64,000 nt of DNA from an uncultured SAR86 cluster bacterium (GTDB taxonomy: Bacteria > Pseudomonadota > Gammaproteobacteria > Magnimaribacterales > D2472). Made by a program: the position numbers and the translations under genes. The stretch spans positions 23,245-87,244 of the forward strand of contig CACJSU010000002.1 of assembly GCA_902596165.1 (NCBI GenBank), written 5' to 3'. Below are positions 5,109-52,451 of this stretch, in pieces (position 1 is the stretch's first letter; every line of letters starts with the position of its first letter). The notes beneath the pieces were generated by a model. It had not been told where the DNA came from and did no database searches. It saw only the letters and a program-made list of their open reading frames with translations.

Positions 5109-6071
5109 ATGTCTTTAAGTCATAAATTCTGCATTGCTCCAATGATGCAGTGCACAGATATACATGATAGATTCTTATTTCGCCTGATATCCAAAAAAGC
5201 TTTTTTATATACAGAAATGGTTACTACAGGAGCAATAATTCATGGTAAATGCTTGGAACAGCTAAATTTTAACAGAGAAATAGAACATCCTGTTGCGGTT
5301 CAACTTGGGGGATCAGATCCTACTGATCTTGCTATATGCTCAAAAATTTGTTCTTCACTTGGTTATGATGAAATTAATTTAAATATTGGCTGTCCATCTG
5401 AAAGAGTGCAAAAAGGCTCGTTTGGTGCATGCCTTATGCAAGACCCAGAGCTTGTTAAAGATTGCATTGTAGCCATGCAAGAAGCTACCTCTATACCTAT
5501 CACAATTAAATGCAGGATAGGTGTCAATGACAGAGATGATATAAATTTTTTAAATGAATTTGTAGCTAAAATTTTAAACCCAAGCTTAAAAACAATTATA
5601 GTTCATGCAAGAGTGGCTATTCTCACAGGTCTTACTCCTAGACAAAATAGACAAATTCCACCTCTGAAATATGAAAATGTATACCAACTAAAACATGAAT
5701 TTCCTGGATTAGAGGTTGTTATCAATGGAGGAATTAAAGATGTTGATGATTCACTCGAGCATTTAAATAAAGTTGACGGGGTTATGCTGGGACGCAGCCC
5801 CTATGATAATCCTATGATTGTTAGTAATGTAGATTCAAAAATTTTTAATGAGATTGATCTTGGTAAGGACAGGCAAACTGTTTTAAGGGAGTATTTGCAA
5901 TATTGTTTACATCAACTAGATCAAGGTCATCCTCTTTCACGAACGTTGAAGCATATATTTGGCTTAAATCGTGGTTTAAAAAATGCCAAGTCATTCAGAA
6001 AACTAATTCTTGAAACAATCCAAAAGAATAATTTAGAAGTAACTCAGGAAGATTTAATATCTATGGTTTGA
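5109..6071 (+). CDS. dusA: tRNA dihydrouridine synthase DusA
   Basis: IAPMM, QLGGSDP, NLNIGCPSERVQKGSFGACLM, NRQIPPLKY. Confidence 0.93.
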   Translation: MSLSHKFCIAPMMQCTDIHDRFLFRLISKKAFLYTEMVTTGAIIHGKCLEQLNFNREIEHPVAVQLGGSDPTDLAICSKICSSLGYDEINLNIGCPSERVQKGSFGACLMQDPELVKDCIVAMQEATSIPITIKCRIGVNDRDDINFLNEFVAKILNPSLKTIIVHARVAILTGLTPRQNRQIPPLKYENVYQLKHEFPGLEVVINGGIKDVDDSLEHLNKVDGVMLGRSPYDNPMIVSNVDSKIFNEIDLGKDRQTVLREYLQYCLHQLDQGHPLSRTLKHIFGLNRGLKNAKSFRKLILETIQKNNLEVTQEDLISMV

Positions 6072-6078
6072 CCCTGGG

Positions 6079-6783
6079 CTAATCAAGCAAAAAATCATCC
6101 ATATCATCGACGAAATCGTCAGGTTGATCTTCGCCATTACTCGATTCAAAAGCTTGATATTGCATATACGAGTCTCTAATAAAAGAGTATCTATCTCCAA
6201 TGATGAGCGTTTCAACTTCTAAGTATCTTGCTCGCGTTTCTAATGCATCAAGGGCTGTTAATCCAATTCTTACATCTGTTTCTTCAATTGCGAATGTTCC
6301 ACTCAAGACAGAGCTCACGGTTCTTCCAGCCAAGCCTCTGGGCGTAGAAGGTCCATATATTGGGATCATTAAAAATGGACCTGAGCCAACACCCCAAGTT
6401 CCTAAAGTTTGTCCAAAGTCTTCGTCATGTCTTTCAAGACCAAATTTAGACCCAACATCAATAAAGCCTCCGAGGCCTATCGTTGAATTAATTAAAAATC
6501 GAGTAAAATCATTAATTGCTAACAAAGGTCTTCCCTGCAGTAACTGATTAGCGGTATTATCAAGCTCATTTAAGTTTCTAAAAAAATTAGTAATCCCAAC
6601 TTCAATGAAATCAGGAGTTATGGATGTATAAACTTCAGCAGTTGGTTTTGCAAAATTATTATCAAGAAATTCATTAAAAGCCCATACTTTTCGATTATAT
6701 TCTTCAAAAGGATCGTCATTAGCAAGTATGAAATTGCTTAAAAAGAACAGCAAAGCAATTGAGGTAAATCGTCTATAGTTCAT
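6079..6783 (-). CDS. mlaA: MlaA/VacJ family protein
   Basis: DPFEEYNR, RFLINSTIGLGG, EDFGQTLGTWGVGSGPFLMIPIYGPST. Confidence 0.93.
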   Translation of the reverse strand: MNYRRFTSIALLFFLSNFILANDDPFEEYNRKVWAFNEFLDNNFAKPTAEVYTSITPDFIEVGITNFFRNLNELDNTANQLLQGRPLLAINDFTRFLINSTIGLGGFIDVGSKFGLERHDEDFGQTLGTWGVGSGPFLMIPIYGPSTPRGLAGRTVSSVLSGTFAIEETDVRIGLTALDALETRARYLEVETLIIGDRYSFIRDSYMQYQAFESSNGEDQPDDFVDDMDDFLLD

Positions 6784-7499
6784 TGTATTATCTTGAGAAT
6801 TTCATTATAGATTGGCTCAAACAAAATTGATGATTTTTCTGGATTAAAATTACCTATCTCTCTTGTTCTAGGAACAGAACCAAGAACTTTGAGACCAATC
6901 TCATCCTCAAGGTTGATTGCGGTAAATTCATGTATTTTCTTATCAGAACTTGGTGAAATTGAATAAGACATATTATCAATTATTCCAATCATTGGTATTT
7001 TCAACCTATCAAACATAACCTTTGATTTAATAGTATCTTGTACAGCTAGATTACTTTGGGAAGTAACTAGCAATACATGATCTGGCTTGATTTCAGCTGC
7101 TACAGTTAAATATGCGTCACCTGTTCCAGGAGGCATATCTATAAATAAATAATCTAAATCCCCCCATTGAGTTAAGTTTTTTAGCTGCTTAATTGCACCA
7201 CTTAGCATTGGACCCCTCCACATTGCAGCCTTATCGTTATCAAGAATAAAGCCCATACTGTTTAAGGCAATATTATTAACTTGTATAGGTATAAACGATT
7301 TAGTACCGTCAACAGTTTGAACTTCTGGTTTCTGATTTAACACATCGAAAAGTAAGTGTTGGTTAGGTCCATAGATATCCGCATCTAGAATACCAACTTT
7401 GAAGTTTTTTGAAAAAAGAGAGGCTAAGTGCGCGCAAATAGTTGATTTACCAACCCCACCCTTTGCTGAAGCTATAGCAATTATTTGTTTGATGCCCAT
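6780..7499 (-). CDS. apbC: Mrp/ApbC P-loop Fe-S carrier (short, no N-terminal domain)
   Basis: KGGVGKST, DADIYGP, WRGPM, WGDLDYLFIDMPPGTGD; divergent from metG. Confidence 0.85.
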   Translation of the reverse strand: MGIKQIIAIASAKGGVGKSTICAHLASLFSKNFKVGILDADIYGPNQHLLFDVLNQKPEVQTVDGTKSFIPIQVNNIALNSMGFILDNDKAAMWRGPMLSGAIKQLKNLTQWGDLDYLFIDMPPGTGDAYLTVAAEIKPDHVLLVTSQSNLAVQDTIKSKVMFDRLKIPMIGIIDNMSYSISPSSDKKIHEFTAINLEDEIGLKVLGSVPRTREIGNFNPEKSSILFEPIYNEILKIIQ

Positions 7500-7554
7500 T
7501 GATATAATTTTTTGACTTATAATACTCGATTAATACTTAAATTGGTTCTCTGAA

Positions 7555-9516
7555 ATTAACAAATCAAGAAAAATAATCGTTACTAACGCTCTTCCATATG
7601 CAAATGGTGAGATTCATTTGGGTCATATTTTAGAGCACATACAAACAAATATTTGGTCTCGATTTATGAGCTTGACCAATAATGAAGTGCTGACTTTTTG
7701 TGCTGATGATGCTCATGGGGCACCAATTATGATGAAAGCAGATGAATTAGGCATCAAACCCTCGGAATTTATCGATGAAGTTAAAGATGAGCACCAAAAA
7801 TCATTAGCTAAGTTTGGTATTGAATACACAAACTATCATTCAACTCATTCTAAAGAAAATGAGTCCTTGGTTTCAGAAATCTATCTAGATGCAATATCCT
7901 CTGGATATATTTATAAAAAAGAGATTCAGCAATGTTTTGATGAAGAAAAACAAATGTTCTTAGCTGATAGATATATTATTGGTGAATGTCCAAAATGTTC
8001 TGCTAAAAATCAGTATGGAGACGGGTGTGAAGAATGCGGAGCAACATATTCAGCTACAGAGCTCATTAATCCAAAATCATCATTATCTGAAACTGCACCC
8101 ATAACTAAATTTTCCGATCATATATTTTTCGATCTTGAAAAAGCAAAAAATAAACTTATTGGATTTCTAGAAAAATCTTCAATTCAAAAACCAATCCTTG
8201 CTAAGTTATCTGAATGGCTTGATGGAGATTTAAAAAGCTGGGATATATCAAGAGATGCGCCATATTTTGGATTTAAGATACCAGATGAAAAAGAGAAATA
8301 TTTCTATGTTTGGGTTGATGCTCCTATTGGATATATAGCATCGGCAGCTAATTGGGCAAATCAGAATTCTCAATCAATAGAGAACTTGTGGGGCAAAGAT
8401 TCAGATTACGAAATTCACCATTTTATTGGTAAAGATATCACTTATTTTCATGGGTTATTTTGGCCTGCCTTGTTAATGGAATCTAAATATAAGCTTCCTG
8501 AAGCTATTCACGTGCACGGATTTGTAACAATAAACGGTGAAAAAATGTCAAAGTCAAAAGGCACATTCATAACTGCAGATCAATTTGCTGATGTTTGCGA
8601 TCCAGAATTACTCCGATATTACTTTGCAAGTAAATTGAATTCAAAGATCGAAGATTTAGATTTAAATCTTGAGGACTTAGCACAAAAAATTAACTCTGAC
8701 TTAGTTGGAAAATTTTCTAATATTTTTAGCAGATCGGCTCCTTTTATATCAAAAAATAATAACTATTTAAGCAAAGAAATTCATCGAGACCATATAGTAA
8801 AATCTAATAAAAATATAAAAAAGATATTACAAAACTATGAAGATAAAGAATTTTCAAAAGCTATTAAATTAATTATGGAGATAGCTGATAATACTAATAA
8901 ATATATTAATGAACATACACCTTGGAAACTTGATCAAGCCGATGCATTAATAATTGCGACAACCGCTCTTAACGTTTTTAAAAACTTATGTGTGTTACTT
9001 TCACCTGTAATCCCACATCTCTGCAAGCAAATGCTGTCAATGTTAGATATTGATGACCTCAAAATAGAAAATCTTGAAAATGAATTAGTTGATACTAAAA
9101 TAGGTGATTTTCAGCCAATCCTCTCAAGAGTTAAACCCTTAAATATTCAAGATTTTTATAAAAAGGAAGAAGAAATGAAAGAAGATAATGTTATTCAAAT
9201 AGACGATTTTATGAAAGTTGATCTAAGAGTTGCGCAGGTTGAGGAGGCCTCTCATGTTGAAGGTGCAGATAAACTCCTTGCCATTAAATTAAACCTAGGT
9301 GAGCTTGGTACAAAAAATGTATTTGCTGGAATAAAATCAGCTTATGAACCTTCTGATTTAAAAGGAAAATTAGTTGTAATGGTTTACAACTTAGCTCCTA
9401 GAAAAATGAAATTTGGATTATCTGAAGGCATGATTTTAGCTGCAAGTGATTCCGAAGGTGGTATCTTTGTATTGTCGCCAGATTCAGGCGCTCAACCAGG
9501 ACAAAGGATTAAATGA
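7555..9516 (+). CDS. metG: Methionine--tRNA ligase; start placed at the in-frame ATT 7555 (track start 7618 cuts the HIGH motif)
   Basis: Frame reads (I)[23 protein letters not shown] upstream of the track start; CPKC/CEEC knuckles, KMSKS, C-terminal tRNA-binding domain. Confidence 0.95.
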
Positions 9517-16205: not shown

Positions 16206-16958
16206 TTAACGAAGATACGCCTGACCTCCATCAAGCATAATAGTCGATCCAGTGATGTAATTCATTCCATCAGAAAGAATATGACAGACAGCCTCGCCAA
16301 TATCATTTTTGCAGTCACCTACTCTACCCAAGGGTATAGTTTTAAGAAATTCATTAGCTTCATCAGGATACTCATTCATCCACCATTCCATCCCAGTGGA
16401 CTTTGCAAGGGGCATTATGCAATTAACTAAAATATTGTCCTGACCCCACTCTACTGCAGCTGCCCTAGATAAGGATCGAATGGACTCTTTCACAGCTGCA
16501 TAAGCTCCATAAGAATTTGAATCAGGTCGTAAAGCAGAAGAGCTCGCTAAATTAATAACTTTTCCATCCCCTTTTAAATGAGGGTATGAAGCTTTCATAA
16601 AGCGGAATGTTGCCAACGGGCCAGAATTCCATCCATTGATAAAGGATTCGTCCGTTACATCTAAAATATTTCCTAGAGGTACTTCTTGCGCATTATTTAT
16701 TAAAATATTAAGAGACTTAAACTTTGAAATTGTGGCTTCAATTGAATTATTAATAGATTCGTTATTTTTTACATCGCATTCAATTGCAATGGCTGATCCG
16801 CCTAGTCGGTTAATATCTTCGGCAACAGCTTCTACTTTAGAAAGGGTTCTTCCAACTAAGCAGACGCTTGCTCCATATGATGCTAGAGCTCTTGCAATTC
16901 CTTCGCCAACCCCTTGACCGGATCCGGTAATTAAAGCTGTTTTATTTGAAAAATCCAT
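16206..16958 (-). CDS. SDR oxidoreductase (start moved to ATG 16958)
   Basis: MDFSNKTALITGSGQGVG, INNA, YAAVK. Confidence 0.88.
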   Translation of the reverse strand: MDFSNKTALITGSGQGVGEGIARALASYGASVCLVGRTLSKVEAVAEDINRLGGSAIAIECDVKNNESINNSIEATISKFKSLNILINNAQEVPLGNILDVTDESFINGWNSGPLATFRFMKASYPHLKGDGKVINLASSSALRPDSNSYGAYAAVKESIRSLSRAAAVEWGQDNILVNCIMPLAKSTGMEWWMNEYPDEANEFLKTIPLGRVGDCKNDIGEAVCHILSDGMNYITGSTIMLDGGQAYLR

Positions 16959-18667
16959 TAAAAATTTGAACCGGTAATATCTTTTGCAGCCAAATAACCA
17001 AAAGTCATCGCTGGGCCAAGTGTTGAACCAGGACCAGGATAAGTTGGCAACAATGCAGTAGAGCAATTTCCGCATGCATAAAGCCCTGGTATAGCTTTAC
17101 CATCTTTGTTCAACACTCTGGCGTGTGTATCAATTACTAGACCGCCTGCTGTACCCATTTCGCCTGGATACAAAACCATACAATAAAAAGGTCCTGTTTC
17201 TAATGGAGCAAGACATGGATTTGGTGTTACTGATGGATCGCCATAATATCTATCGTAAACACTATCGCCACGTTGAAGATCAAGATCTTTACCTGAGGCA
17301 GCATATTCATTAACTTTTGCCTGAGTTACCAAAAGCCCATCAACATTAATACCCGCCACTTCAGCTAGCTCTTCAAGGGTTTCTCCCTTGGATAAGAAAG
17401 TTGGGGTCCACCACTCTTTTGGCACAGCTGAATCAGGTTGCATCGATGCCTGCAGAAGTGGGCCACAAGGTCTATTTTTTCTAAATGTACTATCAAAAAT
17501 CATGTAACAGGGAGCACAAGGATTTCCCTCAGCGTATTTATCAAACATATCATTTACAAAGCTGACATAGTTTTGTGATTCATTGGAGAATCTTTCACCA
17601 TTTTTATTGACAGTAAAATTTCCAGGCATTGATTTATCTACCATTGATAGCCAACCTTTGTCTTGCCCTGGCACCTTCATTACAGTAGACCACCAACCTG
17701 TATCCATTTGATGAGTATCAGCGCCTAATTTTAATGCAGCCTTTAATGCATCACCTGTATTATAAATATTAGCAGCACTCCACTCTATGTTTGTTGGCTT
17801 AGGCAAATATTGATCTCTCAAAGCTTGATCTTTTTCAAATCCTCCGGAAGCAAGAATAACCCCCTTATTAGCCTTAATATTAATTTCAATATTGTTTTTT
17901 GAAGCCTTAATTCCGATCACCGAACCATTTTCGTCAATAAGATCCGTCATTGCAGTTTCTGTCCATAAATCCACGTTCCTATCCTTTAAAGATAAGATTA
18001 ATCTTGCAACACCTGCATTGCCCATTGTTAATCGTCTGTCTTTCCAACCCCATTTAAGCCTCATTGGTAGATCTAAAATATATTTAGTAAATAGTTTTGC
18101 AAATAAAGATTTCCAGCCAGGCAAAGCCCCAAGTAATAGCTGACCCTCTACTTGGGTAAAATTCATATTTATTGGACCCATGGTAAAGGCAGTTTGTGGG
18201 TGCTGTTCTCTTAATTTACCCAGGTCATCTCCGAGATCAGTTCCCTTTATGGGCTCAGGCTCCATGGATCTATTTCCTGCCTTTCCTCCAGGATTATCTG
18301 GAAAATAATCTGGATAATGAGCTAAATTTCTATATTTAACTTGTGAATTTTCATGAAGATAATCAATCATTTTGGGGCCCTCAGAAAGATAAGTTTCAAC
18401 TAGCTCATCTTTAATTTTTCCCTCAGGTGAAACGCTATTTATGTAGTCTCTTGCATCTTGATCAGAGTCATCGACATTTTCAGCTTTTGCATACCTGTTA
18501 TTAGGTATCCAGACACCTCCACCAGAGGTAGCCGAGGTTCCGCCAAATTGAGTACTTTTTTCTATAACTAATGTTTTTGCACCACCATCGTGGCTGCACA
18601 AAGCAGATGTTAAGGCTCCGTTACCAGAACCAATTACAACCACATCAAATTCATAATCCCATTTCAT
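16958..18667 (-). CDS. 3-ketosteroid-delta1-dehydrogenase-like FAD oxidoreductase
   Basis: GGTSATSGGGVWIPNN, YPDY, NESQNY, GLYACGN, YPGPGSTLGPAMTFGY. Confidence 0.82.
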   Translation of the reverse strand: MKWDYEFDVVVIGSGNGALTSALCSHDGGAKTLVIEKSTQFGGTSATSGGGVWIPNNRYAKAENVDDSDQDARDYINSVSPEGKIKDELVETYLSEGPKMIDYLHENSQVKYRNLAHYPDYFPDNPGGKAGNRSMEPEPIKGTDLGDDLGKLREQHPQTAFTMGPINMNFTQVEGQLLLGALPGWKSLFAKLFTKYILDLPMRLKWGWKDRRLTMGNAGVARLILSLKDRNVDLWTETAMTDLIDENGSVIGIKASKNNIEINIKANKGVILASGGFEKDQALRDQYLPKPTNIEWSAANIYNTGDALKAALKLGADTHQMDTGWWSTVMKVPGQDKGWLSMVDKSMPGNFTVNKNGERFSNESQNYVSFVNDMFDKYAEGNPCAPCYMIFDSTFRKNRPCGPLLQASMQPDSAVPKEWWTPTFLSKGETLEELAEVAGINVDGLLVTQAKVNEYAASGKDLDLQRGDSVYDRYYGDPSVTPNPCLAPLETGPFYCMVLYPGEMGTAGGLVIDTHARVLNKDGKAIPGLYACGNCSTALLPTYPGPGSTLGPAMTFGYLAAKDITGSNF

Positions 18668-18689
18668 AATTTTTATTAATTTTTGTTAA

Positions 18690-21461: not shown

Positions 21462-22340
21462 TTAGCCCCTTTTAAAAATGTTTATAAAAATTGCTGGGGT
21501 AGAATCCATATATTCCTTAAAATCTGGGCGTCTTTCTAATGAACGTTTATCCATCATTGCAACTGATGCAATAGCAATTAAAGCATACATAATTAAAGAA
21601 CCTATCAAAAGCCATGCAAACGAATAATTAGCTGCCAAAGCAAAGACAAAAAGGCTAAACCAAAACAATATTTCACCAAAGTAGTTTGGATGACGTGAGT
21701 AATACCACAAGCCTGATTTCATAGTTCTAGGTTCAGAAAGATTTTTTCTAAAATTATACATTTGCTGATCAGAGACAATTTGAATGATGACTGCAGCTAC
21801 AGCCAAAAAAGTTGCAAATATATCTAAATTGTTTAATTCGTTACCAGAGTAAGCAAGAGCATAAATCATTGGGAGTAATGCCATATAAACACAAAGCGTT
21901 GGAATAAGATGTATAGAACCAAAATCGACTATGAAGTATTGAAATTTATTCTTTGTTTTCCCTTTCATCATTATGTATCGCCAATCTTCATGTGAGAAAC
22001 CTTCCCATGATCTTATCCAGTTATAGGTTAATCGGATAGCCCATAACAATAAGCATGCATGCATTAAAAATGCCCTTTGAACATCACCTGCTGCAGAGAT
22101 ATCTGCCCAACACATGATTGTTAAGACAACGGGAATAACTGACCAAAAAGCATCGTACCAGCTAGAATTATTGAAAATTACACTTAAAAAATATATAAAA
22201 ATTGTAGCCTCAATGTGGCAAATAAGTACTTTGAATATTAAAGATGATTCAGAAAAAAGGTTCCAAGTAAACTGCATGGAATAAATGCATGCTACGTACC
22301 CAGCTAAAATAACTAATAGATGTAAAAATTTTGTTTTCAT
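21462..22340 (-). CDS. DUF1295 / steroid 5-alpha-reductase-like membrane protein
   Basis: NSSWYDAFWS, EDWRY, GLWYYSRHPNYFGE. Confidence 0.85.
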   Translation of the reverse strand: MKTKFLHLLVILAGYVACIYSMQFTWNLFSESSLIFKVLICHIEATIFIYFLSVIFNNSSWYDAFWSVIPVVLTIMCWADISAAGDVQRAFLMHACLLLWAIRLTYNWIRSWEGFSHEDWRYIMMKGKTKNKFQYFIVDFGSIHLIPTLCVYMALLPMIYALAYSGNELNNLDIFATFLAVAAVIIQIVSDQQMYNFRKNLSEPRTMKSGLWYYSRHPNYFGEILFWFSLFVFALAANYSFAWLLIGSLIMYALIAIASVAMMDKRSLERRPDFKEYMDSTPAIFINIFKRG

Positions 22341-24754
22341 GTGATGTTAATTAATTTTTTAGGTTGATGATAATCATTTTTAATAGGAATGAGAGGAATA
22401 GATTGTAAAGTAATTAAGTCTCGAAGATTATTGTTTAATGAATCGTACAATGTATTTCTTTGCTGTAAATTTAATTTTAATTCATCGGCAATTCCTATTA
22501 CCTCTTCAAGTCTAAGTTCTTGACCAAAAGAAGCGCCAGCAGATCTTGTAATAGATTCATTCATCAACACTCCTCCGATATCATTAATTCCAGAAGTTAA
22601 TAGGAATTTGAGCCCGGCAAGACCCATTTTAACCCAAGAACCCTGAATATTATTGATCTGACCTTGGAAAAGAATTCTGGCAACGGAATGAACCAAAATT
22701 GTTTCTTTAAAAGTAGGGCCTGGTCTGGCTTGACCCCGCCTAAATATAGGAGCCTCATCTGCAACAAATGGCAAAGGTACAAATTCAGTTATACCATTTG
22801 TTTTTTGTTGAAGATTTAAAAGCTTCAATAAATGATGAGCAACATGAGAATTTCTCTCCACATGTCCAAACATCATGGTAGATGTTGTAGGCAATCCTAC
22901 AGAGTGAGAAGTTTCAATGATGTTAATCCATTGCTTGGAGGTAAGTTTATCAGGGCAAATAATTGCTCTTATTTCATCATGCAAAATTTCTGCTGCCGTT
23001 CCTGGAAGTGAGTTCAAACCTGCTTTTTTTAACTCTACAAGAAACTCTTTAACAGAAATATTTAATGTTTTTCTACCGTGATCAATTTCTAAAGGAGAAA
23101 AGGCATGAATATGAATTGATGATGAGGCTGATCTAATTGCCCTAACAATATCAAGGTAAGTTTCACCAGAATATTTTGGATGTATTCCGCCTTGTAAACA
23201 GACTTCCGTAGCACCCCTTTCGATGGCTTCATTTGTTCTTCGGATAATCTCTTCGTGAGAAATATTATATGGCTTACCTCTTAAGTCATCATGACCCCTG
23301 CCTTTAGAAAAAGCACAAAAATTGCACTTGAAAGAACATATATTTGTGTAGTTAATATTTCTGTTAACTACAAAAGTAATATCTGATCCATGAAGTTGTA
23401 ATTTAAGATCATTGGCATAATCAGTAACATATTTAAAATCATTATCAGATGTCTCTAATAGATACTGGATATTCTCAATAGATGGATTATTTTCAACATC
23501 TTTAATTGACTGTCGAATATTAGAAGTAAAAACAGCTTCTGGATATGAAGGTATTTTATTGCTGATTCCTGATCTCCAAAGATCAGACCGAATAAAAGAT
23601 TGAGAATCAGTTATTTGAAGAAGTTTAGAAGATATTCTAGGCGTTGAAAAAGACTTAAGATCAGTAAAATACTTTGGATACAAAGTTGCTCTTGGTTTTA
23701 AAGTTTGTTTTGACCTTGAGATTATTTTATTAAGCTTGGCTATTTCAGGCCATGGCGCTTCAGGATTTACATAATCCTTTGTAACTGGAGATATTCCACC
23801 AAAATCATTAATTCCAGACTGAGCTAATTGATTAATGTGATCTGAATTTAGATTTGGTGGGACCTGAAGACTAACGTCACCAGGTAAGATCAATCTAGCC
23901 ATCGCAATAGTCCACATAAGCTCATCAAATGATGGTTCGCTAGCATTTGCCATCAATGTATTAGGCTTTGCTCTAAAATTCTGCACAATGACTTCTTGAA
24001 TATGATTATGTGCAAAATGCAATTCAGCTATTTTGTGCAATGACTCTAATCGCTCCAACCTTGTTTCACCAATTCCAATTAATATGCCAGTTGTAAAAGG
24101 AACCTTTTGTCTTCCAGCTTCCTCCAATGTCTTCATTCTAAATATAGGATCTTTATCTGGAGATCCGAAGTGCGGCTGACCCCTTTCAGTTAATCGAGAT
24201 GACAAAGACTCAACCATTAATCCCATAGAGCCACTTAGGGGTTTAAGTTGAGTAATTTCATTAGATGTTAGGCAACCAGGATTTAAATGAGGAATCAAAG
24301 ATGTCTCATTTAATACAGCATCAGCGCATGCAGCCAAATAATCATTTGTTGTCTTGAAACCATTTAAAGACAGCCAATCTCTAGCAGTCTTATATCTTAA
24401 TTCAGGCTTATCACCAAGTGTAAATAATGCTTCATGACAGCCATTAGCCTCGCCCTCTTTAGCAATTGAGATAACTTGATCAATTGATAAATATGGAGAT
24501 TTGACCTTCTTAGGCGTTTTAGCAAATGTACAGTAATGACAAACATCCCGACATAAAAATGTTAAAGGAATAAAAACCTTTGGTGAATAGGTTAATAGAT
24601 CTTTAAAATACGTTTTTTTCTTCTCATAGGATGCTTTGATTAAGTCATCAGATAAACAAATATTAGCTAAGGAGCTTAATTCAGAAAATTCAATTGATTC
24701 CGAAGTAATTAGTTGCTCTAAAGCTTGGTTTGACTGTTCTTGAATTTTCAACAA
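22337..24754 (-). CDS. fbiC: FO synthase FbiC (CofG+CofH fusion)
   Basis: TYSPKVFIPLTFLCRDVCHYC and NRNINYTNICSFKCNFCAFSKG radical-SAM motifs; GTAAEIL; MNESITRSAGA. Confidence 0.95.
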   Translation of the reverse strand: MLKIQEQSNQALEQLITSESIEFSELSSLANICLSDDLIKASYEKKKTYFKDLLTYSPKVFIPLTFLCRDVCHYCTFAKTPKKVKSPYLSIDQVISIAKEGEANGCHEALFTLGDKPELRYKTARDWLSLNGFKTTNDYLAACADAVLNETSLIPHLNPGCLTSNEITQLKPLSGSMGLMVESLSSRLTERGQPHFGSPDKDPIFRMKTLEEAGRQKVPFTTGILIGIGETRLERLESLHKIAELHFAHNHIQEVIVQNFRAKPNTLMANASEPSFDELMWTIAMARLILPGDVSLQVPPNLNSDHINQLAQSGINDFGGISPVTKDYVNPEAPWPEIAKLNKIISRSKQTLKPRATLYPKYFTDLKSFSTPRISSKLLQITDSQSFIRSDLWRSGISNKIPSYPEAVFTSNIRQSIKDVENNPSIENIQYLLETSDNDFKYVTDYANDLKLQLHGSDITFVVNRNINYTNICSFKCNFCAFSKGRGHDDLRGKPYNISHEEIIRRTNEAIERGATEVCLQGGIHPKYSGETYLDIVRAIRSASSSIHIHAFSPLEIDHGRKTLNISVKEFLVELKKAGLNSLPGTAAEILHDEIRAIICPDKLTSKQWINIIETSHSVGLPTTSTMMFGHVERNSHVAHHLLKLLNLQQKTNGITEFVPLPFVADEAPIFRRGQARPGPTFKETILVHSVARILFQGQINNIQGSWVKMGLAGLKFLLTSGINDIGGVLMNESITRSAGASFGQELRLEEVIGIADELKLNLQQRNTLYDSLNNNLRDLITLQSIPLIPIKNDYHQPKKLINIT

Positions 24755-24755
24755 T

Positions 24756-25331
24756 TTAACTATTAATATATTTAATTAGTTTGAAGTAATCTTCCTCGGA
24801 GTCAAGGTCATCTTGAATGCTTTCAATGGAAATATTTTGATAATCTATATCATTATTTTGAAATTCATTCACAAAAAGATTATAGCTATCTATACCAAAT
24901 TTTAGATTAAAAGTTATTGATGAGTTGAACATCAAGCAATTTGTTCCTTGTGTGAAAAAATCAGAAATAATACTGACTTTTTTTATATCAAAAGTTTTTG
25001 CAAGCTCATGAAGATCTTTTTCATTAATTTTAGGAAGATCAGCATGCATGATTAAAATAATGCCATTAGTAGAGTGCAAATTTATAGCCTCATTCAAACC
25101 ATCATTCAATGAAGAATTTGTAAAATATGAAGTTGAATGATTTAAATTTAGATTGCTATCATTTGTAACAACTGTTATCGAATCGCAGATTTCTGAATTA
25201 TGCAAAGTAGTTATTGTTTTTTTTGCCATTGAAGCAGCTAACATTTCTCGTTCAGATGAACTAATAATATTTGACAGTCGGTTCTTTGAAGATGAAAACT
25301 TTTTTATTGGGATGAATGCAGAGACATTCAT
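24756..25331 (-). CDS. cofC: 2-phospho-L-lactate/PEP guanylyltransferase CofC (FbiD)
   Basis: IPIK..SKNRLS, HADLP, GTN, FG.DS, DLDSEED; operon position. Confidence 0.85.
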   Translation of the reverse strand: MNVSAFIPIKKFSSSKNRLSNIISSSEREMLAASMAKKTITTLHNSEICDSITVVTNDSNLNLNHSTSYFTNSSLNDGLNEAINLHSTNGIILIMHADLPKINEKDLHELAKTFDIKKVSIISDFFTQGTNCLMFNSSITFNLKFGIDSYNLFVNEFQNNDIDYQNISIESIQDDLDSEEDYFKLIKYINS

Positions 25332-26261
25332 TTATTTAGATTCAAGTTCATGAATTATTGCCTCGGCAAGTGCATTTTTGTTATCAATAGTATTCATGAT
25401 TAAATCTGCAATATGCACTTCATAACCAAGATCATTTAATTTGTTGGATTCGTCTAAATCAGATGAATCTATAAATATTCTTTTAGAATAACTTTTATAA
25501 AACTTACCAATAGTTTTAACGTCCACTTCTTGGCCAAGCTCTTGCATCATTTTGGCAGTTGGACCTTTTAATGACTGAGCATTAACTATTGGACTTATAA
25601 CAGTAACTTTTTCTGAATAATCATGTAAATAATTTTTTAATGAAGATAATTGAAGCATTGGGTTGATGCTTACATAAGGGTTTGATGGACATATAATAAT
25701 TTCATCATAAGTTGATAAATCTAAATCTTCATTAAAACCAGCCTTATCCAGTCCCTTGAACACGAAGTCAGCTACAGGTGGTTCGCATTTCAATTTTACA
25801 AAATATTCTTGAAATGAAAGTAATCTATTTTTTGTTTGTATATAAGTTTCAACAGGTTGGTTGCTCATTGGAAAGATATTTTTCGGTAGGTTAAATGACT
25901 CACATAAAGTTTGAGTGGCTTGAGTAAGTGATTGACCATTATTTATTAAATACGTTCTTTGAATATGGGTAGCTAAATCTTTATCTCCAAGTTGAAACCA
26001 TGTTTCTCCTCCCATTTCAGACAAAGCTGAAAGCATATTCCATGATTCATCTTTTCTACCCCAGCCCTTTGATGTATCTGATTCCCCCGCAAGGGTATAC
26101 ATCACAGTATCAAGATCGGGACAGATTTTTAATCCATAATGAGTGAAATCATCTCCGGTATTAACAGCAATAGTTAATTTTTTTGGATCAATTGAATTTT
26201 TAAAACCCAATGCAAGCTTAGCTCCCCCTACTCCTCCACATAATAAAAGATAATTTTTCAT
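25332..26261 (-). CDS. cofD: 2-phospho-L-lactate transferase CofD (FbiA)
   Basis: GGVGGAKL, VNTGDD, ICPDLDTVMYTLAG, WFQLGDKDLATH, FQEYFV, PSNPYVSI, KGPTAKMM. Confidence 0.95.
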   Translation of the reverse strand: MKNYLLLCGGVGGAKLALGFKNSIDPKKLTIAVNTGDDFTHYGLKICPDLDTVMYTLAGESDTSKGWGRKDESWNMLSALSEMGGETWFQLGDKDLATHIQRTYLINNGQSLTQATQTLCESFNLPKNIFPMSNQPVETYIQTKNRLLSFQEYFVKLKCEPPVADFVFKGLDKAGFNEDLDLSTYDEIIICPSNPYVSINPMLQLSSLKNYLHDYSEKVTVISPIVNAQSLKGPTAKMMQELGQEVDVKTIGKFYKSYSKRIFIDSSDLDESNKLNDLGYEVHIADLIMNTIDNKNALAEAIIHELESK

Positions 26262-27019
26262 CTAAATAAATCCTCGTCTTCACTACGAATTAATGATTGA
26301 GAATCACTGAGGTTATTTTGATTAAATTTATAGTCCTTTATTAACACAACAGGTTTTTTCTGTGCAGCTTGACCCATTAATAATGATGCGGCAGCTGCTA
26401 ACTCATCTGCAATACCAATTTGAGTTACTTTAAGTTCATTACCAAATAGATCATTTTTTCCTCGCTCGTCTAAAAGGCATTCAATATTATGACTGCCAAT
26501 AGTAAAACCCACTATCCCATTCCTAAAAGGCCTTCCCATGGTATCTGTAATAATTACAGATATATTTTTTTGAAAATGCTCAGATAAAGAATGTGAAATC
26601 TTTTTTGCAGAATCATCAGGATTTTCTGGTAACAACAACACGATGTCTGGTTTTTGATCAATATTGGATCTATCAATACCAGCATTCGCATGAATAAACC
26701 CTAGCTTATGCTCAACTATCAATACTCCCATTCTATATCGCACTACTTTCTTGGACTCATTCAAGATGGCTTGAATAAATCTTGGATCTTTATCAATTTT
26801 AGTTGCTAAAGTTTTTGCTTCATCTGATGGACTAAGCCCTGAAATATCTAGATATCTATTTTCTGACTTAGAAACAATCTTTTGGGCAACTGCTATCACA
26901 TCTCCATCATCAATATGGAGCGCTTCTGATTCTATGGCTTTGATAATTTCTGCAGACAAATCTTGTCCGGGCTGGATCAGAGGTAATGTCTCTAATGCTA
27001 TGAGGTTTATAGAACTAAT
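26258..27019 (-). CDS. cofE: F420-0:gamma-glutamyl ligase CofE; start placed at in-frame ATT 27019
   Basis: AQKIVSKSE, ANAGIDRSN, LLPENPD, ITDTMGRPFRNG, ADELAAAA; conserved N-terminus LIALETLPLIQPGQDL lies upstream of the track start. Confidence 0.92.
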   Translation of the reverse strand: MSSINLIALETLPLIQPGQDLSAEIIKAIESEALHIDDGDVIAVAQKIVSKSENRYLDISGLSPSDEAKTLATKIDKDPRFIQAILNESKKVVRYRMGVLIVEHKLGFIHANAGIDRSNIDQKPDIVLLLPENPDDSAKKISHSLSEHFQKNISVIITDTMGRPFRNGIVGFTIGSHNIECLLDERGKNDLFGNELKVTQIGIADELAAAASLLMGQAAQKKPVVLIKDYKFNQNNLSDSQSLIRSEDEDLFR

Positions 27020-27034
27020 AATATTTCTCTTTTT

Positions 27035-27667
27035 TTAATGGCCTGTAATCTTGATGCCTGAATGTGCAAGTGAGTGTTTTTTGTTAATTGCAATAAGTAT
27101 TGAGGTCAAGGCTTCTGCTGCAACTGAATTGCATAATGGTCCTGCATGCCATCCAGTAAGACCAGCATCTGATGCCAGATCAATAACTATATTTCTTGCC
27201 TCTATCAAGTCTCCAGCAACCAATACATCACAATCTATTTTTGCATCAGTTTGAAGTAATTCAGCTGAGATATTTTGAAAAGCTGATACTACGGTTGTAT
27301 GTTCACCTAATATTGATTGTGCATTTAAAGCTGCCGAGCCACCTTCTGGCAATTGAACTCTCATTACTTTAGGTGGCATAAGGGGAACAGTTGCATCGAT
27401 CATAATTTTATTATGCAAAGTATTTTCTATACTCAAGAGCGTTGATTCTTGATGGGCAAATGGAACTGTTAAACAAGCAATTTCACAAGATTTAGCAGCA
27501 TCAATATTGAGCATCCCAGAAGAATGATCAAGGCCTAGTTGATCAGCTATTTCTTGAGCTTTTAATAAATCACGACTTCCGATAATGATCTCATGACCTG
27601 CTTTAATCCACCTTGAGCCCAATCCTTTGCCCAAAGAGCCTGTACCACCGAGAATAGCTATTTTCAT
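27035..27667 (-). CDS. npdG: NADPH-dependent F420 reductase (Fno)
   Basis: GGTGSLGKGL, IGSR, LTVPF, IDATVPL, SAFQNISA, AEALTSILI; heads the cof operon; AGGAG RBS. Confidence 0.93.
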   Translation of the reverse strand: MKIAILGGTGSLGKGLGSRWIKAGHEIIIGSRDLLKAQEIADQLGLDHSSGMLNIDAAKSCEIACLTVPFAHQESTLLSIENTLHNKIMIDATVPLMPPKVMRVQLPEGGSAALNAQSILGEHTTVVSAFQNISAELLQTDAKIDCDVLVAGDLIEARNIVIDLASDAGLTGWHAGPLCNSVAAEALTSILIAINKKHSLAHSGIKITGH

Positions 27668-35225: not shown

Positions 35226-35258
35226 AAATAACTAAAATATCTTCTAATACCAAAGACT

Positions 35259-36221
35259 ATGACTGATAAAAAAAGATACTCAATGTTACAAATCCCATTT
35301 GGCTGGTACGTAGTTGATTACTCTAATGAACTTAAACCTGGTGATGTAAAGGCTGTTCGTTATTTTGCCCAAGATCAAGTTTTATTTAGAACCGAATCAG
35401 GAGAAGTAAGCATGCTTGATGCTTATTGTCCTCATTTAGGTGCACACCTTGGACACGGCGGCATAATTAATGGTGAATGTATTGAATGTCCTTTCCATGC
35501 GTGGAGATGGAAAACAGATGGAAAAATTGGTGAGATACCTTACGCAAAGAATATTCCTCCTAAAGCAAAAGAAACTAAAATATTCACATACCCAACTGTA
35601 GAAAAAAATAATCTTATATATGCTTGGTATCATCCAAATGGTGAGGAGCCTCATTATGAGGTTGAAACCTATCCAGAAATTAATGATCCTGAGTGGGGTG
35701 ATGAATTTGAAAAATTTGAATATCGAATTAAGTGTCATATACAAGACATGGCAGAAAACGCGGTTGATGCCGCACACTTCATGTATGTTCATGGAGTTGC
35801 TTCGTATCCAGAATTTGAGGTGAGTTACCAAGATCAGAAAAGATTTTTTTCTCAAAAAGCCGATATGATTACACCTAGAGGCACCGTAAAAGGAAAAATT
35901 TCAGGAGCCTCAAATGGACCTGGTGATAATTTTACAAGGTTTGAAGGAATATGTGACACCCTGCTCTTGGGTTCAACAACTCCAACAGAAAACGAAGAGG
36001 TTATTACAAGATTTTCTTTTCTTCAAAAAAAGGTTGATGGAAAAGTTCCAACTGGTGGTGTTGGATCTGCAATTATTGCCGATATAAATAAACAAGTTAA
36101 AGAAGATATACCTGTCTGGGAAAATAAAAAATATGCTTCAAGACCTGTTCTTTGTGATTCTGATGGTCCAATTGCTAAATTTAGAAAGCATTTTGCTACT
36201 TTTTATGTTGATCAATTATAA
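35259..36221 (+). CDS. Rieske non-heme iron oxygenase, KshA/Neverland-like
   Basis: PFGWY, CPHLGAHL..CPFHAW, ENAVDAAHFMYVHG, EDIPVWENKKY. Confidence 0.85.
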   Translation: MTDKKRYSMLQIPFGWYVVDYSNELKPGDVKAVRYFAQDQVLFRTESGEVSMLDAYCPHLGAHLGHGGIINGECIECPFHAWRWKTDGKIGEIPYAKNIPPKAKETKIFTYPTVEKNNLIYAWYHPNGEEPHYEVETYPEINDPEWGDEFEKFEYRIKCHIQDMAENAVDAAHFMYVHGVASYPEFEVSYQDQKRFFSQKADMITPRGTVKGKISGASNGPGDNFTRFEGICDTLLLGSTTPTENEEVITRFSFLQKKVDGKVPTGGVGSAIIADINKQVKEDIPVWENKKYASRPVLCDSDGPIAKFRKHFATFYVDQL

Positions 36222-38675: not shown

Positions 38676-38706
38676 CTTTTAGCTCTAATATAGCCTAAGG
38701 ATAATT

Positions 38707-41685
38707 ATGCCTATAAGACTCCAGTTACTTTTATTTGGGGTAATTGGTAATGTTCTTGTTGCTGCTATATTTATATTTTCTTTCGGTTATAGAGAAAATA
38801 TTCAAGAAAACTCATCAAATGAATCACTATTAACTCTTTATGAATCTGCTTGGTATCAAACATACAATAAATCTTTTGACGTCATGTCAAAGTGGCTTCC
38901 AGTAACTGGAGAAAATGCGTCCTTTTGGGATCCTGAGTCAGAAATCTTTTTAGATGAAGTAGACTCTAGTGATATCTATACAAATCCACTGCTAGATACT
39001 ATTAGCGCAGATAGAATTGGTGATGCTCAATACCTGATAGAACTATTTTTTGAAGAAGAGCTTGATTATGGAAACTTAAGTTATGTTATGGCTTACTTCC
39101 CTTCCGGTGAAAGGATTTATTGTGGCAGTGCGCTTGACTTATTGGGAGTTGACCCCTGTTCTCCTGCAGCCCGACCTGATTTTTTTAGCTATCTAGATTC
39201 ATTTCTTCAAGATGCTTCAAGCAGGCCAAGGCAGTCAATTGTAAAAATTAAAGATAAAAATGAAGAACAGGCTTCCACTTTAAATCAAGCATTGAGTTTT
39301 CCGATTAAGGTTGAGGGTGAAACTTTGGCTGTAATAGCTTTGGGTGTGGATATTAGAAAAGGCCTGGAAGTTTTTGAGGATGAATTTGAAGTTAGAACTG
39401 CAATTAATACTGACTCTGGCTTGATATCTCTAAATGACTATTACCAGCAGTTTGGTGATACAGAAGATGATTTGTTTGATATAGAGAACTTCAATAAATT
39501 AACTGATAAGGCGGCTTCATTTAAAGCAATAAATGGCTCCCGTCACTCTGAGAAAGACACCGAACTTGGAACTTCAGTTACTCTTCTCCCCTTGAGTACT
39601 TTTTTATCAGCGGACGAAGCGCAATTATTTATTTTTAAAGATGAGAGAGAAAATATCTTGAGGGCGGCTAATGTATTAAATTTAACCTACGTAGCTGCTA
39701 TATCATTTGTGATATTTATTATTTCACTCATAGCGTTTATCACCACCAGAACCTTTGGTGGAATAACGAAAGCTATCGAGGTGCTCGAGGGCCTTACAAA
39801 GGGTGATCATACCCAAGAAATGCCAATCAGAAAGGGAATTCTTGCATCAGAAAAGGACGAAGTTGGGCAGCTTTCTGCTGCGCTTGGAACCTATAAATCT
39901 CATTTAGTTGAAATGGAATCTATCAGAGAGGAACAAGCAAAACGAAGGCATGAAAGAGATGAAGTAATTATTGAAAAAATGACAGCGCTTGCAGATCAGC
40001 TTGATGGTAGTGCAAGAACTCTTATTCTAAATGATATTAAAAAAATGAATGAGCTTGCTGATAATGCTGATAGAAACTCAAGCGAAGAAGCCTCTGTAGA
40101 ATTGATGTTAGTTGCTTTCTCAAGAATGTCTGATGAGGTTAACGGATTGATTGATGCTAGAACCAGTGAAATGGAAACTGCAAGAGATGAAGCTAGAGAT
40201 GCCAGTGATCAAAAAACAAAGTTCTTTGCAAATATGAGTCATGAATTGAGAACTCCGCTAAATGCCATTCTTGGTTATGGAGAAATGCTTTATGAAGACT
40301 GTGAAGATTTAGGCTACGATGACCTGCTTCCAGACCTAAAAAAAATTACCTCTTCGGGGACTCATCTATTATCTTTAATTAATAATATTTTAGATCTTTC
40401 TAAAATTGAAGCTGGAAAGATGGAGCTATTTGTTACAAGTTTTGAGATTGAGAATATGGTTCAAACAATTAAAGATGTTTCCGAGCCTTTAGCAGCAAAA
40501 AATGATAATGGATTTGTAATTAGCCTTGATGGTGCTATGGGATCTATGTCTCAAGACGAGACAAAACTCAGACAGTGTCTAACAAACTTTTTAAGTAATG
40601 GTTTCAAGTTTACTAAAAATGGAACGGTTACTTTAGATGTAAAGGCAAGAATGGATGGTGACGTTGAATTTATAGACTTTGCAGTCATTGATACCGGTGC
40701 AGGAATGAGCCCAGAGGGGGTAGCTAAGGTATTTGAAGAATATACTCAAGCTGAAAGATCAACATCGGCAAATTATGGTGGAACCGGTTTAGGCCTACCA
40801 ATTTCAAAGAAATTTGCAGAGATGATGGGTGGAGATGTTGTAGTTACAAGTGAAGAAGGTGTTGGTTCTGTGTTTACTATGTCAGTCCCACGAGAATGTC
40901 CTGAATACAGTGAGGATGAAGTAGAAGGAAGTGTAATTAATCTTGATGATCAAGATAATCTTGTAGTGTTAGTCGATGATGACGTGGCAATGCATGATCT
41001 AATTAAAAGGACAATCTCAAAACTCAATTTAACTCTTCTTGGTGCAACAAACAGCGAAAAGGGAATGGAATTAATTAGAGAAGTTAAACCTAAATTAATT
41101 CTGCTTGACGTATTAATGCCTGGTCGTGATGGCTGGTCTCTATTAAAAGAATGTAAAACAGATCAAGAGTTAAAAGACATACCTGTAATTATGATTAGTC
41201 AACTAAATCAATCAAATCTTGCCTCATCTCTTGGTGCAAATGATTATCTAACTAAGCCAATTGATAGAACGCATTTTATAAATACATTAAAAAGAATATT
41301 GGGTACAGATACTCGCAATCAAAAAGTATTAGTCATAGATGATGATAAGGATGTAAGAGACCTTCTATCCAGACTATTAAAAGATGCAGATTATATGCCA
41401 ATAGATGCTCGAGATGGTAAAGAAGGTCTTGAAAGAACAAAAGATGAGCCAGCATTAATAATTTTAGATTTAGAGATGCCTAGAATGGATGGGTTTGAAT
41501 TTTTAGACAACTATATTAAAGATGTGCCAGAAGAAAAAAGAGCGCCAGTTTTAGTTTTCTCTGGTAAGGATTTAACAGATGTGCAGGAAGATCTTTTAAA
41601 AGAGAGAGTTATTGGTCTAGTTAAAAAGGATGATACATCTATGGATAAACTCTCACATATGATCCAAGGAATTTTAAAAAACTAA
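38707..41685 (+). CDS. Hybrid sensor kinase: TM-periplasmic-TM-HAMP-HisKA-HATPase-REC-REC
   Basis: FANMSHELRTPLNAI, NFLSNGFKFT, DTGAG, GGTGLGL, two receivers (LLDVLMP, ILDLEMP). Confidence 0.93.
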   Translation: MPIRLQLLLFGVIGNVLVAAIFIFSFGYRENIQENSSNESLLTLYESAWYQTYNKSFDVMSKWLPVTGENASFWDPESEIFLDEVDSSDIYTNPLLDTISADRIGDAQYLIELFFEEELDYGNLSYVMAYFPSGERIYCGSALDLLGVDPCSPAARPDFFSYLDSFLQDASSRPRQSIVKIKDKNEEQASTLNQALSFPIKVEGETLAVIALGVDIRKGLEVFEDEFEVRTAINTDSGLISLNDYYQQFGDTEDDLFDIENFNKLTDKAASFKAINGSRHSEKDTELGTSVTLLPLSTFLSADEAQLFIFKDERENILRAANVLNLTYVAAISFVIFIISLIAFITTRTFGGITKAIEVLEGLTKGDHTQEMPIRKGILASEKDEVGQLSAALGTYKSHLVEMESIREEQAKRRHERDEVIIEKMTALADQLDGSARTLILNDIKKMNELADNADRNSSEEASVELMLVAFSRMSDEVNGLIDARTSEMETARDEARDASDQKTKFFANMSHELRTPLNAILGYGEMLYEDCEDLGYDDLLPDLKKITSSGTHLLSLINNILDLSKIEAGKMELFVTSFEIENMVQTIKDVSEPLAAKNDNGFVISLDGAMGSMSQDETKLRQCLTNFLSNGFKFTKNGTVTLDVKARMDGDVEFIDFAVIDTGAGMSPEGVAKVFEEYTQAERSTSANYGGTGLGLPISKKFAEMMGGDVVVTSEEGVGSVFTMSVPRECPEYSEDEVEGSVINLDDQDNLVVLVDDDVAMHDLIKRTISKLNLTLLGATNSEKGMELIREVKPKLILLDVLMPGRDGWSLLKECKTDQELKDIPVIMISQLNQSNLASSLGANDYLTKPIDRTHFINTLKRILGTDTRNQKVLVIDDDKDVRDLLSRLLKDADYMPIDARDGKEGLERTKDEPALIILDLEMPRMDGFEFLDNYIKDVPEEKRAPVLVFSGKDLTDVQEDLLKERVIGLVKKDDTSMDKLSHMIQGILKN

Positions 41686-42047
41686 GACCCTACAAACGCC
41701 TCAATTTTACCTAATAACCTTTTAAAATCTACAGGCTTTGTATCAAAATCGTCTGCTCCACATTCTAATGCCTTTTGTTTATCTGATTCTAGAGCATGAG
41801 CAGTTAGAGCAATAATTGGAATAGAGCTAATAGATTCATCAGCTTTAGCCTGAATTGTTGCTTCCCAGCCATCCAAGACTGGCAAACCCATATCCATAAG
41901 CACAAGATCGGGGGCTTCACTCCTCATCATATCCAGGCCCGCTTGACCATCAAAAGCCATAATAATTTCGTACCCTCTTCTTGAAAGTCTTCGAGATAGC
42001 ATGTCTCGATTCATTTCATTATCTTCAACGTATAGTAATTTTGCCAT
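41682..42047 (-). CDS. Single-domain response regulator (DivK/CheY-like)
   Basis: YVEDNEMNRDML, LMDMGLP, IALTAHA, TKPVD. Confidence 0.93.
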   Translation of the reverse strand: MAKLLYVEDNEMNRDMLSRRLSRRGYEIIMAFDGQAGLDMMRSEAPDLVLMDMGLPVLDGWEATIQAKADESISSIPIIALTAHALESDKQKALECGADDFDTKPVDFKRLLGKIEAFVGS

Positions 42048-42051
42048 TTTA

Positions 42052-43536
42052 TTAGTCTCCTACTAACTCACTATCAATTAATTTAAATCTATTCCTTCCA
42101 TTCTTTTTAGCTTCATAAAGTCTCTCATCAGCTTTGTTGGTCAAATCAGCAGAAGTTTCAGTTTCTGTTGAAAATGCAACGCCGCCACTTGAACTTACTT
42201 TAATATCTGTTCCTTCAAAATTAACAATATTATCGTTAATTTTTTTAATTAATTTGGTACAGAACTCTTTTGCTTGATCATGATCAAGGTAAAGAATTGC
42301 CAAAAACTCTTCTCCACCTATTCTACCAACTATATTCGGCGAAGAAATCTCCGCTTGCAACAATTGAGCAAAAGATATTAAGACTGCATCTCCTCCGGCA
42401 TGTCCATAGTTATCGTTGACTTGTTTAAAAAAATCAATATCAAACATAATGGTTGCAAATTGGCGATCTTTTGATTGCTTTGAATTATCCATAGCCTCAT
42501 CCAGGGCCTCAAAAATTACCCTACGATTGTATATTCCTGTAAGTTGATCAGTTGTAGCTTGAATATGTAATTTATTTACCAGCTCTTTTTCACGCTCTCG
42601 CCAAAATTTTCTCTCCAAGGCAGCTACTACTTTAGCAAGCAATATAGTTCCATTAATAGGTTTTGGTAGATAGTCTTGGGCTCCTAATTGAATACATTTA
42701 GAAATACTATCAACATCATTAAAAGCCGATACCATGATCACTGGTAAAGATTCTGAATTATGCTCTTTTCTAAATGTTTTCAATAGCTCAAGGCCATTAA
42801 TGTCAGGCAAAATTACATCTAAAAGAATCAAATCTGGAGTTTTTTTAAAGACTTCCGCAATTGCAGTATTACCATCATAGGCAGTTCTGCAGGAAAGACC
42901 CTGCATTGATAAGCGCCTTTGAAGAACCTCACAGTTTGTTACATTGTCATCAACAATTAGGATATCTGATTCTTTAATCTCATCACCAAGAGTAATTGAA
43001 TACTCTATATCGCCTAAAGATTTAAATAGCGCTTCTGCAGATTCTAGCTGGTTTGAAGAATTATTATTATTTTGGTCAATTACCTCACCTCTTATATAAT
43101 CAACAAAATTTTCTATTGCGGTTTCAGTTTCTCTAGCAAGATTAATAATTTGCTGGAAATCTTCTAAGGTATTTTCTTCAAGATCATCCTCATAGTCCTC
43201 CATTAAAATTTCACTGTATCCAATGATTGCATTTAAAGGGGTTCTAAGATTATGCCTAAGTTCAGAGTATTCCTCAGGAGATTTCTTTGATGAATCAGCA
43301 TTGACTCCAGTATTTTGAACAAAAGCAACTTCATATTGATCAATTAATTTAGAACAAGAAGATTTAATTTGCTCTATTTCTTCATCAGACTGAAGATCAG
43401 CATCATTCAGAACTTTTTCAACCATATCTACATAATCAAATATGGCATTAGCAGGCGTAATAAAATCCTGTTTAATTTGTGTTAGAACTATTTCTTCTGC
43501 GCCCTTGGATGTTTCTTTTGGAGTTAGTTTATCCAT
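42052..43536 (-). CDS. HisKA-like x2 + REC + GGDEF diguanylate cyclase
   Basis: RHNLRTPLNAIIGYSE, IVDD..LLDVILP..PKP, DQLTGIYNRR, DIDFFKQVNDNYGHAGGD, RIGGEEF. Confidence 0.9.
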   Translation of the reverse strand: MDKLTPKETSKGAEEIVLTQIKQDFITPANAIFDYVDMVEKVLNDADLQSDEEIEQIKSSCSKLIDQYEVAFVQNTGVNADSSKKSPEEYSELRHNLRTPLNAIIGYSEILMEDYEDDLEENTLEDFQQIINLARETETAIENFVDYIRGEVIDQNNNNSSNQLESAEALFKSLGDIEYSITLGDEIKESDILIVDDNVTNCEVLQRRLSMQGLSCRTAYDGNTAIAEVFKKTPDLILLDVILPDINGLELLKTFRKEHNSESLPVIMVSAFNDVDSISKCIQLGAQDYLPKPINGTILLAKVVAALERKFWREREKELVNKLHIQATTDQLTGIYNRRVIFEALDEAMDNSKQSKDRQFATIMFDIDFFKQVNDNYGHAGGDAVLISFAQLLQAEISSPNIVGRIGGEEFLAILYLDHDQAKEFCTKLIKKINDNIVNFEGTDIKVSSSGGVAFSTETETSADLTNKADERLYEAKKNGRNRFKLIDSELVGD

Positions 43537-43539
43537 TTT

Positions 43540-44634: not shown

Positions 44635-44639
44635 CTTTG

Positions 44640-48225: not shown

Positions 48226-48255
48226 AAAAATATTATAAGTTTAATAGTTGAAGTT

Positions 48256-52448: not shown

Positions 52449-52451
52449 AAA

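Follow-up and report, generated by a model that had tools for sequence, protein, structure and literature searches.

The window analysed here comprises 64,000 nucleotides of an uncultured SAR86 cluster bacterium (contig CACJSU010000002.1 of assembly GCA_902596165.1), is very compact with 34.5 % GC, and carries on its plus strand metG, the gene for methionine--tRNA ligase (methionyl-tRNA synthetase, MetRS), in which no canonical start codon precedes the conserved N-terminus. metG occupies positions 7555 to 9516, i.e. 653 codons plus TGA when counted from the ATT at 7555-7557, the proposed initiation codon. The frame is closed upstream by an in-frame TAA at 7531-7533, seven codons separate this stop from the ATT, and no ATG, GTG or TTG follows in frame before TTG 7618-7620. 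This TTG encodes the leucine of HLGH (7615-7626, MetRS residues 21-24), the HIGH signature of class I synthetases. The first in-frame ATG is the internal codon of Met38 at 7666-7668, the start used by gene callers for proteins of 615-618 amino acids; the KMSKS signature lies further downstream at 8542-8556 (residues 330-334). The first-pass annotation had described a metG without a canonical start and with the first canonical codon inside the HIGH motif, and both statements held, as did its coordinates and codons; a small correction concerns the terminator, which is TGA 9514-9516 and overlaps ATG 9513 of the next gene. In-frame near-cognate codons past the stop are ATT 7555, ATA 7573, ATC 7576 and ATT 7612, of which ATT 7555 is the sole near-cognate of ATG between the stop and Arg5. 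The distance from the stop to the first canonical start is the longest among the 59 open reading frames (ORFs) kept as genes in the window (28 codons, followed by 25, 25, 23 and 19), yet a run of 28 codons without ATG, GTG or TTG is not rare at this GC content (P ~ 0.26 by our estimate). The oddity is the conserved catalytic N-terminus inside the start-free stretch, not the length of the stretch: class I synthetases need HIGH for catalysis, and the product contains it only when translation begins upstream of TTG 7618.

Read from the ATT, the product is a full-length MetRS of the PRK00133/NF001100 type, with both class I signatures in place. The NCBIfam profile NF001100 matched with 802 bits (cut-off 587), residues 3-653 being aligned to profile positions 3-676, and TIGR00399, the C-terminal tRNA-binding (Trbp111-like) domain, covered residues 524-653 with a score of 133.7 against a cut-off of 116.65. 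MetRS chains in the PDB matched at E ~1e-164, and query residue 4 paired with residue 4 of the E. coli chain. With the ATT as residue 1, the N-terminus matches both E. coli MetRS and the profile of the family within one residue, which fits the normal length that had been expected of a start at ATT 7555. A scan of species-representative genomes yielded ten loci, two close ones (L001 and L003) and eight distant ones with 39-48 % identity. In seven of the eight distant loci an ATG stands 3-7 codons ahead of the first beta-strand (I/L-L/I-V-T), in L010 about ten codons ahead, and the basic pair R5-K6 before I-I-V-T is common to all seven distant loci read and to E. coli. In the window, an ATT is located where these homologues have Met1.

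At the DNA level the ATT codon was covered by three sequences, the window, L001 and L003, with MetRS identities to the window of 81 % (L001) and 76 % (L003). ATT occupies the homologous codon in all three, and the two relatives are likewise without a canonical start upstream. L001 has a TAG in the place of TAA 7531-7533, and L003 carries an extra in-frame TAG four codons ahead of the ATT, which confines a start there to this span of four codons plus the ATT. The relatives were inspected for an ATG or an indel instead of the ATT, the finding that would mark an assembly error, and both independent assemblies carry ATT. Comparison of codons 2-37 in the three genomes shows purely synonymous variation in 13 codons and residue changes in 4, hence this segment is translated and under purifying selection. 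The interval from the ATT to Ile7 comprises five residues, is constant in length and has K3, R5 and K6 conserved in every N-terminus of the clade that was seen. From the ATT onward, 24 of 26 bases are invariant in the three genomes, synonymous sites included, suggesting selection on the metG start region at the nucleotide level. A separate observation concerns the distal part of the gene in L003, where an in-frame TAA (5609-5611) replaces a lysine codon in the metG linker and cuts off the C-terminal tRNA-binding domain; an ATG three codons past this stop could start a separate ORF of 118 codons for the domain. Database relatives of 553-554 amino acids, e.g. P0244, also lack the C-terminal tRNA-binding domain.

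The 120 best protein homologues listed were compared for their called N-termini. Nearly all, 114 proteins, are gene-caller products of 615-618 amino acids starting at Met38 or three residues later, among them P0003 (616 amino acids), the protein that the database itself calls on this contig. Five homologues, all from NCBI, are full-length and start with M-N-K-S-R-K or M-K-K-S-R-K at the ATT position, and a single one (ENA) begins at a chance canonical codon within A-L-P-Y. No gene-caller protein (ENA/JGI) in this set begins at the ATT codon, and a canonical codon at its position was seen in none of the gene-caller proteins examined. A search with residues 1-45 only revealed P0243-P0247, five additional members of the clade for which an N-terminus has been called. 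Relative to the ATT position they are called from codons -4, -14, -4, -2 and -14, and an isoleucine is kept at that position in all five. The ATT is apparently an inherited trait of the whole clade, down to MetRS identities of ~70 %. The truncation arises because no start other than ATG, GTG and TTG is accepted by gene callers: in the protein collection searched, the first 37 or more residues, HIGH included, are missing from 114 of the 120 entries closest to this MetRS. This is a systematic mis-annotation in metagenome catalogues, and studies on completeness, phylogeny and structure in this abundant marine group inherit the truncation error.

Upstream of metG lies apbC/mrp (6780-7499, minus strand, ATG at 7499), a divergent gene for an Fe-S cluster carrier ATPase that matches the NCBIfam ApbC/Mrp models at E ~1e-55, under their full-length cut-offs. 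The intergenic region of 55 nt consists of two contrasting parts. The apbC-proximal part (7500-7532) is a near-invariant block with promoter-like motifs, on the plus strand TGATATAAT at 7500-7508, TTGACT at 7512-7517 and TATAAT at 7518-7523. In the three genomes, which differ by 19-24 % in MetRS, 32 of its 33 columns are invariant, exceeding the conservation of the flanking coding DNA, and the block occurs once in the window. It probably represents a promoter region common to the divergently oriented apbC and metG, although a simple promoter scan gave hexamer pairs other than those read in the block. Rfam had no match in the whole window at gathering scores, nor in 7440-7700 at E values up to 1. 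The metG-proximal part (7533-7554) is a variable, A/U-rich non-coding leader with 8 of 22 columns variable and, in L003, with stops in the metG frame. Leader and first codons are unstructured, their minimum free energy of -2.3 to -6.4 kcal/mol being no lower than that of shuffled sequences. No motif resembling a Shine-Dalgarno (SD) sequence was present in the 25 nt ahead of the ATT; as 35 of the 59 gene starts of the window are without such a motif, the SD-less start of metG is ordinary here. Starts in the window are typically A-rich, ATG AAA is common, GTG or TTG is used at only 6 of the 59, and neighbouring genes often overlap by a few bases, e.g. with ATGA at 9513-9516.

A small ORF in another frame (L-T-Y-N-T-R...), beginning with TTG and comprising 13 codons and a TGA, extends over 7512-7553 on the plus strand and may be an upstream ORF or a chance ORF over the promoter block. 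In L001 and L003 the corresponding frame is open for 15 codons and is terminated by a TAA that has its T in common with the ATT. Two more distant relatives, P0244 and P0247, have the leader read in this frame (M-T/S-Y-N-T-R...) fused in frame to MetRS, and the N-termini of P0243 and P0245 suggest that the spacing from the TTG to the isoleucine differs by indels among relatives.

From these observations we infer that translation of metG initiates at AUU 7555-7557, a reading we consider highly probable. The initiator formylmethionyl-tRNA (fMet-tRNA) would read the AUU with a third-position mismatch and produce the MetRS of 653 amino acids including HIGH. Several points weigh against this reading. 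The third-base invariance of the ATT is not significant alone, considering that 21 of the 36 neighbouring codons are also invariant in the third base, and the codon is covered by the three DNA sequences only. The five NCBI homologues were read as proteins, so that their initial methionine could stand for ATG or ATT, and the five relatives found with the N-terminal search have an in-frame canonical codon upstream, thus the isoleucine may be internal in them. The small upstream ORF ends at or beside the ATT in all three genomes, and initiation may depend on it. Efficiency is a further concern. In E. coli reporters AUU, like AUC, AUA and CUG, initiates at ~1-2 % of AUG according to the preprint 10.1101/063800, and PMC10666635 quotes 0.3 % for AUU. 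An adequate expression of an essential enzyme from an SD-less AUU is not obvious.

One alternative keeps the ATT as the start but has it reached by termination-reinitiation. Ribosomes translating the small ORF from TTG 7512 would terminate at TGA 7551-7553 and reinitiate at the ATT, compensating the weak codon and the absent SD sequence. All three genomes keep the small ORF open; a single nucleotide separates its stop from the ATT in the window, and in L001 and L003 the two overlap by the shared T. Overlaps of the ATTAA type are possible with ATT starts according to PMC10666635, and in cofE, treated below, an ATT-ATT likewise follows 12-15 nt past the stop of npdG. On the other hand, TTG 7512 has no SD sequence and is located inside the promoter-like block; with TGATATAAT at 7500-7508 as the -10 element, the expected transcription start would be ~7515, downstream of this TTG. 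The encoded peptide is unconserved outside the invariant DNA block, with 5 residue-changing versus 2 synonymous codon differences, the position of the stop varies between genomes, and indels in relatives bring the small ORF in frame with metG. Reinitiation is thus regarded as unlikely. The same TTG has been considered as the start of a protein that switches into the metG frame through programmed +1 frameshifting of the prfB type, giving a MetRS with an N-terminal extension of ~14 residues. The two frames differ by +1 and share the stretch 7534-7553, and P0244 and P0247 carry this leader as an in-frame fusion to MetRS. But the overlap is the most variable segment and lacks both an SD-like stimulator and a slippery site common to the genomes, and the stop lies at different positions in them; in L003 the span permitted for a shift is only ~14 nt and, as we read it, holds no re-pairing codon. 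Invariance of the leader DNA even at third positions suggests a signal in the DNA rather than in the peptide, and neither the family profile nor E. coli MetRS has such an extension. A frameshift is therefore extremely improbable.

Among starts within the metG frame, ATA 7573 and ATC 7576 are invariant in the three genomes and preceded by a weak purine run, AAGAAAA; the resulting MetRS would start one or two residues before V-T-N-A-L-P-Y. Such a protein would lose the basic pair ahead of the first strand, whose conservation in the distant loci and E. coli places the start upstream of it and speaks for the exclusion of both codons. The N-terminus would be shorter than in any homologue seen, and the constant spacing and conserved residues from the ATT to Ile7 contrast with the indels and stops upstream of the ATT. 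We consider these two codons very unlikely starts. Finally, the ATG might have been lost through a sequencing or assembly error, the gene might be a pseudogene, or a truncated protein might be made from TTG 7618 or ATG 7666, the form that the gene callers indeed deliver. Two further genomes, at species level, show an identical state, and the 114 gene calls, assembled independently, imply it as well, which rules out an assembly error as the source of the ATT. Truncated forms were rejected as well: the HIGH signature would be lost, and codons 2-37 evolve as coding sequence with the purifying selection described above, an argument that also speaks against decay. The probability of an artefact or a decaying gene is close to nil.

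In a comparison of the first canonical start with the beginning of the Pfam or NCBIfam match, performed for 55 and 47 ORFs of the window, respectively, one other gene showed a conflict: cofE, coding for F420-0:L-glutamate ligase on the minus strand (26258-27022 within an ORF of 26258-27034), with the candidate starts ATT 27022-27020 and ATT 27019-27017. Its first canonical codon, TTG 26959-26957, is codon 26 after the stop. The Pfam domain F420_ligase begins at residue 17, nine codons before this TTG, and residue 10 pairs with profile position 2 of TIGR01916. cofE shares the frame of npdG and directly follows its TAA, continuing with K-K-R-N-I-I-S-S-I-N-L-I-A-L-E-T-L-P-L-I-Q-P-G-Q-D-L, the last L being the TTG. 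Calls for cofE in relatives are either truncated (forms of 242 and 233 amino acids) or extended into npdG (forms of 277 amino acids), the same pattern of mis-annotation as for metG, while the NCBI protein P0133 has its methionine at the second ATT of the window. Hence two of the 59 ORFs kept as genes, metG and cofE, appear to start at ATT. cofE belongs to a complete-looking coenzyme F420 gene set on the minus strand (22337-27667) with a cofG/cofH fusion (fbiC, TTG start), cofC, cofD, cofE and npdG, the last coding for an NADPH-dependent F420 reductase; this set is located in a gammaproteobacterium. Elsewhere in the window are genes resembling those of steroid or aromatic-ring degradation, at 16958-18685 (minus), 35232-36221 (plus), 46990-48240 (minus) and 52449-53651 (plus), including a 3-ketosteroid-delta-1-dehydrogenase-like gene, a KshA-like Rieske oxygenase, thiolases and several short-chain dehydrogenases/reductases. 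They adjoin a cluster for two-component and cyclic di-GMP signalling at 38689-44661.

By analogy with E. coli, the AUU start of metG would be expected to be weak and responsive to initiation factor 3 (IF3), temperature and guanosine tetraphosphate (ppGpp). MetRS synthesis would then be set low and respond to IF3 activity and growth state. Its most likely role would be a low translational set-point that is tolerated or favoured in the lineage, and cofE seems alike. A regulatory device specific for metG is disfavoured because the same 64 kb contain, in cofE, a second and unrelated gene that lacks a canonical start and carries ATT-ATT at the expected position, and because the ATT of metG, unlike that of E. 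coli infC, is without an SD sequence. A weak-start set-point or a lineage-wide tolerance of AUU fits the data at least as well. The first-pass annotation had proposed that MetRS synthesis could be coupled to initiation fidelity; a function of MetRS as monitor of this fidelity gained no support from these data. infC was not detected in the window by Pfam and NCBIfam scans, and the ORFs of L001 and L003, arranged in the same gene order as in the window, did not include it either. It is conceivable, though we would put it only as a tentative suggestion, that the lineage uses AUU initiation far more than model bacteria do, with two of 59 genes in a single 64-kb window compared to two confirmed cases in the whole of E. 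coli. This would imply a re-tuned start discrimination by IF3, the initiator tRNA or the P site of the 30S subunit, with the AUU of metG selected as a set-point that ties MetRS supply to initiation stringency, nutrient state or temperature. It is unusual to see a clade-wide SD-less AUU on an essential synthetase whose substrates include the initiator tRNA, and metG offers a testable entry point to the question whether start-codon discrimination is relaxed in streamlined marine bacteria. Genomes of very low GC content use ATG almost exclusively according to PMC5499595, thus the fixed ATT in metG runs against the trend.

A literature search retrieved no published description of an AUU or ATT start for metG or methionyl-tRNA synthetase, although the start-codon survey table of 10.1101/063800 might contain such cases. 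The E. coli metG codes for the same PRK00133 type of enzyme with C-terminal tRNA-binding domain and an N-terminus equal within one residue, and E. coli K-12 has the same divergent mrp/apbC-metG arrangement, but its metG starts with ATG and its intergenic region measures 131 bp compared to 55 bp here. Confirmed AUU starts in E. coli are those of infC and pcnB only, according to 10.1101/063800. infC, the gene for IF3, is like metG an essential gene of the translation apparatus with an ATT start; in NC_000913.3 the annotated ATT is followed by AAA GGC. A strong SD sequence, GGAGG, lies a few bases upstream of it, whereas metG here has none. IF3 autoregulation acts on the AUU or AUC of infC, a non-canonical start kept in relatives, and mRNAs with AUU compete poorly, particularly at low temperature, when nutrients are limiting and in the presence of ppGpp (both from PMC5499595). 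The logic of infC, in which IF3 represses its own AUU, is not obviously transferable to MetRS. For pcnB, 10.1101/063800 takes the AUU start as a means to keep expression low and describes a start that varies across phyla (AUG, GUG, UUG); the ATT of metG, in contrast, is kept across the sampled clade, and pcnB codes for a non-essential, low-abundance enzyme, unlike MetRS. A genus-conserved non-canonical set-point with a regulatory role is described in PMC5472188 for sigR of Streptomyces, the GTC start of which is repressed by IF3. This case differs from metG in the codon, the class of gene, the experimental demonstration and the translational coupling with rsrA. Within this range of systems, metG of this clade would be a further AUU-initiated bacterial gene of the infC and pcnB kind, and NCBI implicitly annotates five relatives from this codon.

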